Source: an uncultured Methanosarcinaceae archaeon
GTDB lineage: Archaea; Halobacteriota; Methanosarcinia; Methanosarcinales; Methanosarcinaceae
DNA length: 64,000 nt
Reading direction: 5' to 3'
Assembly (NCBI GenBank): GCA_963727895.1
Contig: CAVSHT010000014.1
Coordinates: 32,001-96,000 of the forward strand
In this document: piece by piece, positions 18,001 through 21,000 of the stretch
Numbering within the stretch: the stretch's first letter is position 1
How the letters are laid out: the number at the start of each line of letters is the position of its first letter
Made by a program: the position numbers

Positions 18001-21000
18001 GCAAAAACGTATACTGTTGAAGGATATAACAGCATATTGAAACAGCATATTGAGGCATTTTCTGGCAAGGTTGAGAAGAAAGACAGAGTGTTATACGAAG
18101 AGTATTGAAATGCTAAAGTACTCGGTTATTCTATTGATGAAATACAGAAATAAAGAACTGGCCATGTTTAGTTAACAATGCCGTCAAGTGAAATATTTTT
18201 CCAGAGTAAAGCTACTCCAACAATAAATCCTGAAATTATTGTGCTTTTATCCAAATTTGATAGCCATTTGAGTGCTTTAGAAAATATGTTTTGTTTCGAT
18301 GTATCTACATGATTAAATTCAGTCCTGATAGATGTGTATGGAATGTACTTAAGCCGGCATATGTCCATTTTTTTAGCTGAATTTTCGATTATTTTCTGTA
18401 GAGGACCTTCTATACTATTACCAACTTCCCACAACTCCCTGACACATTCCTCAAAAGCTCTTTCGTCCTTTCGCATTCTAGAATGTTTATATTTATATAT
18501 TTTTTATGCAATCCATTAATTTATCAAGAGACTGTATGAATGCTTCACCTTTCTGATTTCCTTTATATATTTCTCTACAGACAATTAATTTATTTTCCCA
18601 ATTTTCAATTTCATATTCAAGTTTTGGTACTTCATCCGTTGTTTTGATTACTTTAAGAAACGCATAGTCAATTATGATTTACAAAACTGCCATTACAATA
18701 CTAATAATCAATCAATTATTTGGAATAGTTCTATAATATTGATACATCTTCTAGAATATTTTAACTTTTCTTTGATATCGTAAATTTACATGCTTATCCT
18801 GAGATTTTTTGCAACGTAACCACTGTAATTTATGCATAGCTTTTTGAAATTTGCCATACTTTATTAGCTCTCGAAAACCAATAGCTATCGCCAATATTTG
18901 TGGAATGGCTTTATATAGTTAGAAATTTATACAGTATCTAGCGATTAATTTTCGAGGTGACTATTATAGCCGATGCGAGAAATTTTGTTTTACGAGATGA
19001 GAATGGCAATGAGCATGGAGTCTTCACAGGGAAACAGCCTCGTCAGGCTGCTTTGAAAGCTGCAAATCGGGGTGCTGGGACAAAATCCAAACCGGAGATT
19101 ATTCGTCTTAGAGAACGCGGAACAAAGAAAGTACACGTTTTCAAGGGATGGAAAGAAACTGTAAAAGCTCCCGAAAATAGGCCTAGCTGGATGCCTGAGA
19201 AAATAGATAAGCCCTTTGTCAAGAAAGAGAAAATCGAAACAATCGAGTAAATAAAAATCTTCTTTTTCAATTTTTACCCTAGAAAACTAAGTTAGGCAAC
19301 ATGACCTTAAAACAACTTTTTTCAGTATACTGTGACTTACCTCAAAACTGTATAGTTGTAACAGGCCAACGAATACAATTTAACGAGGTGATATGGATTG
19401 CTGACCTGCAAGACATCATTAATTGAAATAGGTTAAATTCTTTTTCGTTCTGTTCAAATACGAACTTTGTAGGTCAAAAGGTTCGCATATTAACACTTTC
19501 TGAAAAAGTAGTTTTTTAGGAAAATGTATAGGTTTTACAACGAAATTTTCGCTACATTTTTTATATTTTGCATTAGAAAAAAGTTATGTAAAATAAGTAA
19601 CACTCCATTAAAACATATGGGGTAACTCTTATTTCAATGGAAAAACGTAAAATAAAGTAATTAGTCTGTTGCTATTATCACATCTGAAGCTTTGACTACA
19701 GCGTATACATCGCTTCCTTCTTTTAAGTTCAGACTTTCAGCTGATGTTTTTGTGATGATGGAAGTGATTTCTGCTCCTCCAGGTACTGCTATTACAATTT
19801 CAGCGTTTACCATACCAGTAACAATTTTTTTAACCTTGCCCTTCATTACATTGCGTGCGCTCAGTTTCATTATTTGCTCCTCCACTCTATTTTTTTAGTT
19901 ATTTTTATTATTCTTTAGTTATTTTACACATATCTATACATATATGAGTCTTACGAACTTGAGATCAGTTTATGGTTTCTATTTGGAGATTGATATCGGT
20001 TCAGCTCAAAAACGTGAAGAATTAAAATCATTTTCATGCGTCTTCGGTTAAGTGAAGAATCGTGACAAATTGCATCAATTCCTATAACATTTGTTAAATC
20101 TGTTAATAGATCATGAGCTGGAACAAGGTATCGATTTCATATAGATAAGCAAAGATTTAAGGCAGGCTTCTAGTGCAAAATCAATAGCTTTCAGGCAAGA
20201 AAATTCTTTAACCGATGACCAATGAAAAAGTCTCAAACTTCTGTATTTTCTAAATATTCTGTATAATTTGCTGCTGGGATTGAAGCAAAAAGGACTAAAA
20301 TACATAGATTTTATGAAAATAAATTGCGTGCGGCCACCCCACCCTAAAGGATGGGGTATGCTTCGGGCCGCCTGCCCGGTTAATTGGAGACAGATAATTA
20401 AGCATCCTTTAACAAGGTTTCCTTACTATAAGTGATTGAAATTTTGACCTCGGTTTCCTATCCGATTTACGATCTACATAAAAGGAAGCTATGGTTTAGA
20501 TATTCAAAGAGAAATAAGAAGAGGCGAGGGTCCACTTCATCTCCAATCTAAAGAATGGAGTATTCGTGACCCTCTGCGCTCCCGTTGTAATAAAGTAGAA
20601 AGTAGGCGGGTATCTGGTCTATAAGCACATTGGGAAGAGGAAAGTTATGGCATATAAACCAGAAAATCCCGCATGACAACTATTACTTCTGTAATCAGTT
20701 AACTCCCATCGAAAAACATGTCAGAAACTATATAACGGGTAGAATCCCCCAAGATAAAGTACACTCTAAAAACCAATTTTTTAGAAAAAATAATTCATAA
20801 TAATCTTTAAAAGGAACAAATAATTAATATAAAACCTTTATTTGTTCACAATTTATGTTTATTCATAAATAAGGCATCTGATATCATTTTTGTCCTTACA
20901 AAATTCAATGTTAAAAGTAAGGAAAAAACAACGTTTAATGTACCAATAGAAGTATTTAAGTCCTTTAAATAAAAAATAAATCTTTTAATGAATGTAATTT

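Follow-up and report, generated by a model that had tools for sequence, protein, structure and literature searches.

An additional gene for the chromatin protein MC1 on a plasmid-like Methanosarcinaceae contig is probably passenger cargo of shuffled accessory DNA

The mc1 gene on contig C14 of an uncultured Methanosarcinaceae archaeon was interpreted as a passenger carried within shuffled DNA of plasmid origin and not as a dedicated MC1 cassette, a reading to which a probability of roughly 0.6 is assigned. The gene lies in the window, the stretch of 64,000 nucleotides that was analyzed and whose position 1 is C14 position 32,001. The pool of plasmid-derived, IS6-scarred accessory DNA would comprise C14, C17, the first ~180 kb of C4, ~75 kb of C3 and a patch of C5. 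Within it, mc1 with its own promoter and terminator would have come to adjoin palindrome B of a dispersed site, at which a small tyrosine recombinase would exchange DNA and so provide one mc1 unit with different right flanks; IS6 activity would have trimmed the left side and probably helped to copy the unit into C5. The window MC1 would bend and protect DNA like the core MC1 and add to the cell's pool, probably at low output because of its ATA start. In the analysis's own labels, G000 is the genome under study, other G labels denote genomes of relatives and L labels denote loci; the features of the window are collected in Table 1.

Table 1. Features of the window that bear on the mc1 gene and on the nature of contig C14.
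Feature	Position	Strand	Basis and remarks
Replication factor A paralogue (PRK07217-type)	551-1825	-	One of two identical C14 copies; the other at C14:615-1886
IS6-family remnant end	18654-18821	.	Multi-copy matches over 18654-18821; left limit of the module in the window
Native upstream spacer of the module	18822-18873	+	Common to L134-L136; IS6 terminal repeat in its place in C5 and L138
TATA box, archaeal, probable	18910-18917	+	Sequence; conserved upstream of most mc1 copies; putative function
Shine-Dalgarno motif (18954-18960) and ATA (18966-18968)	18954-18968	+	Annotated GTG lies inside the motif; ATA is the putative start
mc1 (PF05854)	18957-19250 (C14:50957-51247)	+	97 aa (GTG start) or 94 aa (ATA start); Pfam E 1.2e-41
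T-rich tract after the stop, probable archaeal terminator	19260-19275	+	Sequence; putative function
Palindrome B	19458-19488	+	Arms ACGAAC / GTTCG around about 15 bp; C5 identity breaks at its centre
Subsite C and right flank	19499-19574	+	19448-19574 is 89.8% like C3:51634-51759; unlike the C5 flank
Plasmid-type Orc1/Cdc6	36892-38148	-	Distance to mc1 17.6 kb; chief ground for calling C14 plasmid-like
Small tyrosine recombinase, truncated copy	42150-42530	-	Without the N-terminal segment that holds the first catalytic Arg

Five MC1 (PF05854) genes, the number given in an earlier note on this DNA, were recovered from the genome as open frames at C14:50957-51247, C5:355729-355439, C3:50192-50482, C3:100036-99746 and C12:224482. 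The C12 gene, flanked by folE2 and argB, is the core mc1; the C5 copy is chromosomal, with pdxS/pdxT about 16 kb away, and C3:100036 lies near nadA with no dispersed site within 30 kb. The window protein matched the family profile over its full length (positions 1-96 of 96; 141 bits against a family cut-off of 23) and the M. thermophila MC1 structures 1t23, 2khl and 2nbj (E 8e-50), and it retains Arg4, Lys22, Gln23, Arg25, Lys30, Pro72, Trp74, Met75, Lys85, Lys86 and Ile89. The DNA-contact residues Gln23, Arg25, Pro72, Trp74, Met75, Lys86 and Ile89 are all present in the window and C5 copies, and the window gene is probably an ordinary, functional MC1 paralogue as judged from its sequence. Its coverage in an RNA run (run X2) was seen in assembled contigs only. 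The description of all five copies as intact was not confirmed: the C3:50192 protein has His25 instead of Arg25, a position at which, in the available text on M. thermophila MC1, replacement by Ala or Gln cuts DNA binding more than 100-fold (PMC3928310), and it is probably weak in DNA binding. This gene (L006:10192-10482) is a close relative of the MC1 copy beside Orc1 on G026:C227. The C3:100036 protein has Thr85 and Thr89. With five copies G000 stands high but not alone, the earlier note having itself counted one equal among 41 genomes; in G049, five matches are likewise full-length and free of stop codons. Seven MC1 matches, counted with intactness set aside, come from a genome of another genus; genus g25 of the same order (G080-G117) has two to seven in most genomes, and most other genera have exactly one. 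An Rfam search of window 17000-22000 gave no match, and a sigma-70 promoter scan, a model unsuited to archaea, gave chance-level scores.

The designation of C14 as a plasmid contig was supported by its gene content and was not supported by its ends, which show no terminal overlap; one end dovetails over 7 kb with C17 (C14:100485-107433 = C17:43867-36899, 97.5%). The C14 Orc1 shares 67% identity with its counterpart on two named Methanosarcina plasmids and about 35% and 27% with the two chromosomal Orc1 proteins, and a VirB4-like ATPase, a primase and a toxin-antitoxin pair are also encoded. At 34.4%, the GC content of C14 is the lowest of the 19 contigs, and IS6 ends occur at 27-33 per 100 kb on C14, C17 and C4 versus 1.3-1.4 on C9 and C12. 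No ribosomal or central methanogenesis families were found among the C14 and C17 ORFs scanned. Additionally, C14 starts inside a 2.9-kb direct repeat (C14:1-2917 = C14:31940-34856, 99%) that holds replication factor A and DNA polymerase IV; one possible reading of this repeat and the 7-kb dovetail is that C14 and C17 form a single ~144-kb cointegrate. Together, the data allow C14 to be called plasmid-derived, in a form that may be free or integrated. The sequence runs considered for C14 copy number all consist of contigs, and the best of them holds 0.49 of the words.

Other genes of the C14 element were weighed as markers. Replication factor A genes of the PRK07217 type occur in the assembly on C14 only and fall into a second, non-chromosomal clade, separate from the orthologues on chromosomes. 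The genes that flank the usual chromosomal locus are found in the interior of C3 and C11 with the gene missing, and the C14 element may have taken the place of a host gene. The value of replication factor A as a simple marker of plasmids is lowered, this type being a single chromosomal gene in most relatives. The accessory tracts C4:1-180000 and C3:1-75000 (L217-L223, L006, L009-L011) have C14-like sites, IS6 scars, a VirB4 cluster and a 227-aa protein family and are joined to core genes; they are likely integrated relatives of the C14 element. The window member of the 227-aa family (5084-5767) has nine matches in the genome, all in plasmid-like tracts, and distant relatives in 7 of 58 other genomes. 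This protein and a 228-aa ORF were considered as the winged-helix plasmid marker of the earlier note and dropped; neither has a Pfam or NCBIfam match, and the 228-aa ORF has no plasmid match. DUF1699, found beside MC1 in seven of the relatives' loci, was likewise rejected as a marker on account of its many chromosomal copies.

The previously described 645-bp duplication was recovered as window 18874-19518 (+) and C5:355812-355168 with 95.2% identity, rising to about 97-99% across promoter, gene and trailer; the encoded proteins are identical, as had been claimed, the codons showing two synonymous and no replacement differences. Near-identity stops at the centre of palindrome B, in agreement with the earlier statement that the duplication ends at a recombination site. 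A contig of an independent RNA run covers 19075-19552 with no differences; therefore, the right junction is not an assembly artefact. The left edge is of another kind, and the description of the module as bounded by sites does not apply to it: neither the window nor C5 has a site there, and the nearest upstream dispersed site on C14 is 5,970 bp away. In the window, an IS6 remnant ends 52 bp short of the duplicated part with a terminal inverted repeat (18806-18821) that matches the ends of the intact IS6 at 38468-39322. In C5, the left edge is an exact IS6 terminal repeat, and the unit is enclosed by a pair of perfect IS6 ends 855 bp apart that point inward (-95 and +744 relative to the GTG); no target-site duplication was found at these ends, the 10 bases outside the two repeats being different.

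The dispersed site is composite, made up of two palindromes, A and B, spaced 82-83 bp apart and with centres of 13 and 15-17 bp, and of a weaker third part, subsite C. The window copy consists of B and C only, palindrome A, normally 82 bp upstream of B, being absent. With a profile built from 25 of them, 32 copies were found in G000 at 24 bits or more, eight of them on C14, against a best score of 8.9 in the shuffled genome. The site occurs across the genus, closed chromosomes included, and no copy at 18 bits or more was found on the closed plasmids G003:C2, G005:C2 and G058:C2. It adjoins a full small tyrosine recombinase gene in G001, on two contigs of G017 and on C4 of G000, where the genome's full recombinase gene is located (C4:173825-174361). 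Flanks were compared among 40 sites (31 from G000 and nine from relatives; one further site was dropped for want of a right arm), with sharing defined as at least 85% identity on the left and at least 80% on the right. Of 780 pairs, eight share the left flank, seven share the right and none of these 15 share both, although the 15 informative pairs overstate independence because six come from four related sites. This pattern points to exchange at palindrome B, and we infer that the recombinase carries it out. A serine-resolvase reading with crossover at palindrome A was dropped, since the breaks are at B and the adjacent enzyme is a tyrosine recombinase. A literature search that covered few subscription papers found no report of this composite site.

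Comparison with further contexts showed how far the mc1 unit behaves as a module. Five metagenome loci (L134-L138) encode MC1 proteins 95-100% identical to that of the window, though L134-L136 look like repeated assemblies of a single sequence. Palindrome B marks the end of the unit in the window, in C5, in L138 and, in degenerate form, in L134/L135, with four different right flanks for near-identical mc1 units. Upstream of mc1, unrelated genes are found in L134-L136 and L137, with no left site in any of these loci, and in C5 and L138 the mc1 promoter region directly follows a terminal repeat of IS6. Only L138 has B sites on both sides of the unit, at 2808 and 3470 and in the same orientation. 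From these left and right contexts, therefore, the right edge is set at the site and the left one by IS6, L138 being the single case of a cassette with two sites. Against the usual description of dif modules, exchange of flanks at the site agrees; a site at both ends does not, the window, C5 and L134/L135 having one at the right end only, and the composite layout departs from the 11-6-11 arrangement of Xer-type sites. The arrangement previously cited for G015:C227 was found on the contig numbered G026:C227 here, where MC1 is accompanied by an extra Orc1, a site and a partial small-recombinase gene.

The claim that MC1 is cargo of Methanosarcina plasmids was sustained as an enrichment and was too broad as a general description, most extra copies lying among chromosomal genes. 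Among the matches listed, extra MC1 was found on 5 of 29 extra-Orc1 contigs of other genomes versus 0.51 expected, and in 3 of the 29 the two genes lie no more than 10 kb apart versus 0.17 expected, values that kinship among these related genomes inflates. Of the five matches, one is interrupted by a stop codon and another runs off the end of its contig. Expected counts were taken from each genome's density of extra copies, which were counted by hand, with G000, the broken Orc1 matches on two long G047 contigs and six partial-Orc1 contigs set aside. In L143 and L078, MC1 lies amid genes whose best G000 match is on C14. The earlier note had itself conceded that most extra copies in the 11 other loci of relatives it covered look chromosomal, and their contexts were indeed housekeeping ones, many and varied (tRNA endonuclease/hflX, dnaK/dnaJ, radA, pgk and others). 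None of six MC1 matches in plasmid records, a set from which records very close to this genome may be missing, is from a named Methanosarcina plasmid; phage records gave no match, and viral contigs gave a single weak partial one (35%). A single mobile MC1 clade was sought and not found, the label, assigned by context, requiring at least three changes on the tree.

Several other explanations were weighed against this evidence. Plain chromosomal paralogy, in which a short stand-alone gene is often duplicated, IS6 made the copy, C14 belongs to a variable part of the chromosome and the site is a mere bystander, is in keeping with a chromosomal second copy in 10 of 15 closed genomes as against none on three closed plasmids, with the housekeeping contexts, with the two IS6 ends around the C5 copy and with the multiple mc1 copies already stated for several Methanosarcinaceae strains in the available text of PMC13729102. 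This reading was judged unlikely, as it leaves unexplained the break at the B centre in four contexts, the swapping of flanks among sites and the excess of about tenfold on extra-Orc1 contigs. A true two-site MC1 cassette like the dif modules of Acinetobacter, a 0.66-kb unit cut out, inserted at B sites and selected as chromatin-protein cargo, would account for L138, but even there the left site is separated from the promoter by an IS6 end, and such a site is missing in the other contexts. A Logan contig that covers exactly 18815-19455 would suit such a unit; its ends are equally expected from an assembler working between two repeats. The C3:50192 gene and its G026:C227 relative lie 1.2 and 2.8 kb from a site, but in relatives a site was found within 5 kb of only one of 65 non-core MC1 loci (retrieved with at most 5 kb on each side, some cut by contig ends and a few fragments left out), and in metagenomes the site is strong in 1 of 80 MC1 loci, many of them short, and weak in two more. 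A dedicated cassette was accordingly considered quite improbable.

HU-type proteins serve as architectural cofactors for some resolvases, and plasmid MC1 could by the same token be a cofactor of the site that bends the DNA between A and B or binds the Holliday junction. The A-B spacing of 82-83 bp is kept across the genus, and MC1 is a DNA bender with an about 4-fold preference for four-way junctions (PMC3928310, available text); however, most loci with a site or a recombinase gene lack an MC1 gene in their vicinity, and the core gene would supply the protein anyway, leaving this idea with very little likelihood. The passenger-cargo reading has weak points of its own, among them the absence of palindrome A from the window copy of the site, the truncated C14 recombinase, the ends of C14, which do not close, the C3 and C4 tracts that run into core genes, the presence of the site on closed chromosomes as well and the replication factor A type of C14, which is chromosomal in most relatives.

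At the position where the core gene has ATG, the window mc1 has ATA, five bases after an intact Shine-Dalgarno motif. Across 133 distinct mc1 sequences (from loci L013-L213 and G000), the codon at the core-ATG position is ATA in 85, ATG in 41, ATC in three and ATT in none, four sequences having a longer N-terminus. By labels drawn from neighbouring genes, which may be wrong on short contigs, ATA occurs in 78 of 115 extra copies and 7 of 18 core copies. All four extra copies of G000 have ATA, 20 of 20 further core copies have ATG, and 19 of 19 copies parsed from other genera have ATG, one of these a codon upstream. In one sub-lineage, ATA is also present in the core gene. On the mc1 tree, 9-11 switches between ATG and ATA are needed. 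The GTG is out of frame in seven ATA genes. Against a role as start, the GTG is in frame in the other 78, other Ile positions of mc1 are also biased (up to 55 of 59), and an ATG follows three codons later in 56 of the 85 ATA genes; the window copy has none. Initiation at AUA in the ATA-type genes is the interpretation to which the sequence comparison inclines us, and the ATA may throttle expression of the extra copies. Excess MC1 delays exit from stationary phase according to the available text of PMC13729102. A literature search that included the available part of PMC11456600 found no report of AUA initiation. With ATA in place of ATG, non-AUG initiation and the control of dosage could be tested directly in a methanogen.

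A more far-reaching proposal would be that Methanosarcina plasmids run an archaeal counterpart of dif modules in which an MC1 cassette is kept as an extra chromatin protein for foreign DNA on the 100-kb scale, its dose tuned by a conserved AUA start that has changed places with AUG many times. This combination is doubtful; if true, the AUA dose tuning would be an unreported control of non-AUG initiation on a major archaeal chromatin gene.

Plasmid-borne MC1 as such is not new, contrary to what the earlier note implied; it is published for Methanoperedens and annotated on haloarchaeal plasmids, so that the headline adds a genus, not a concept. Several of the following sources were available in part, and statements on them refer to those parts. 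In Methanoperedens, MC1 is found on HMp plasmids and is expressed on HMp_v1, with plasmid compaction proposed (PMC9674854), and most jumbo extrachromosomal elements carry it (PMC13444090). As on C14, a host-like MC1 resides on a large archaeal element with its own Orc1; unlike C14, which is not closed, those elements are closed circles, and the available parts of both papers mention no recombination site or duplication and report no such case for Methanosarcina. In M. acetivorans, each of MC1a and MC1b is dispensable and one appears essential (PMC13729102). Together with M. thermophila MC1, these two belong to the same family as the window MC1 and have the same DNA-binding residues; they are treated as chromosomal in that text, and "essential" refers to the function, not to an extra copy. 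The haloarchaeal plasmid genes of the MC1 family (five Halococcus dombrowskii records and one Salinibaculum record, annotated in five of the six) encode proteins with 39-51% identity and form a separate lineage. Gain of MC1 elsewhere by horizontal transfer is mentioned in PMC7613761. The literature search, in which few subscription papers were covered, yielded no report of MC1 on a Methanosarcina plasmid.

Bacterial plasmids offer further points of comparison. Their H-NS-like stealth proteins silence AT-rich genes and lower plasmid cost (PMC6312765). Common to both cases is a large mobile element of lower GC content on which a chromatin protein of the host has a paralogue; unlike the H-NS-like silencers, MC1 is a monomeric bender. 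An H-NS-like role for plasmid MC1 may thus be proposed by analogy; the literature search returned no silencing or plasmid-fitness role for MC1, and the H-NS stealth papers, as far as available, made no mention of MC1. The pdif sites of Acinetobacter have two arms with a 6-bp spacer, are served by host XerC/D and lie at each module end (PMC13141974), and dif sites, archaeal ones among them, have an 11-6-11 layout (PMC8371274). The present system resembles them in its many related palindromic sites on accessory DNA, in the exchange of flanks at the site and in a tyrosine recombinase; it differs in that the site is composite (A, B, C), the recombinase is a putative one and mc1 is single-sided in all but one context. 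A unit of promoter, mc1, terminator and site in a genetically tractable genus would make it possible to test whether archaeal plasmids use chromatin proteins to lower their cost.

Elsewhere in the window, two ORFs contain perfect short repeats (Tyr-Tyr-His-Pro units at 22330-22629 and Thr/Ser-rich units at 11356-12726) and probably encode secreted or surface proteins. Two short ORFs at 8473-8718 and 8822-9046 have no family match; one product is coiled-coil-like with a Trp-Trp-Lys-Phe-Trp tail, and the other is perhaps a small DNA-binding protein.
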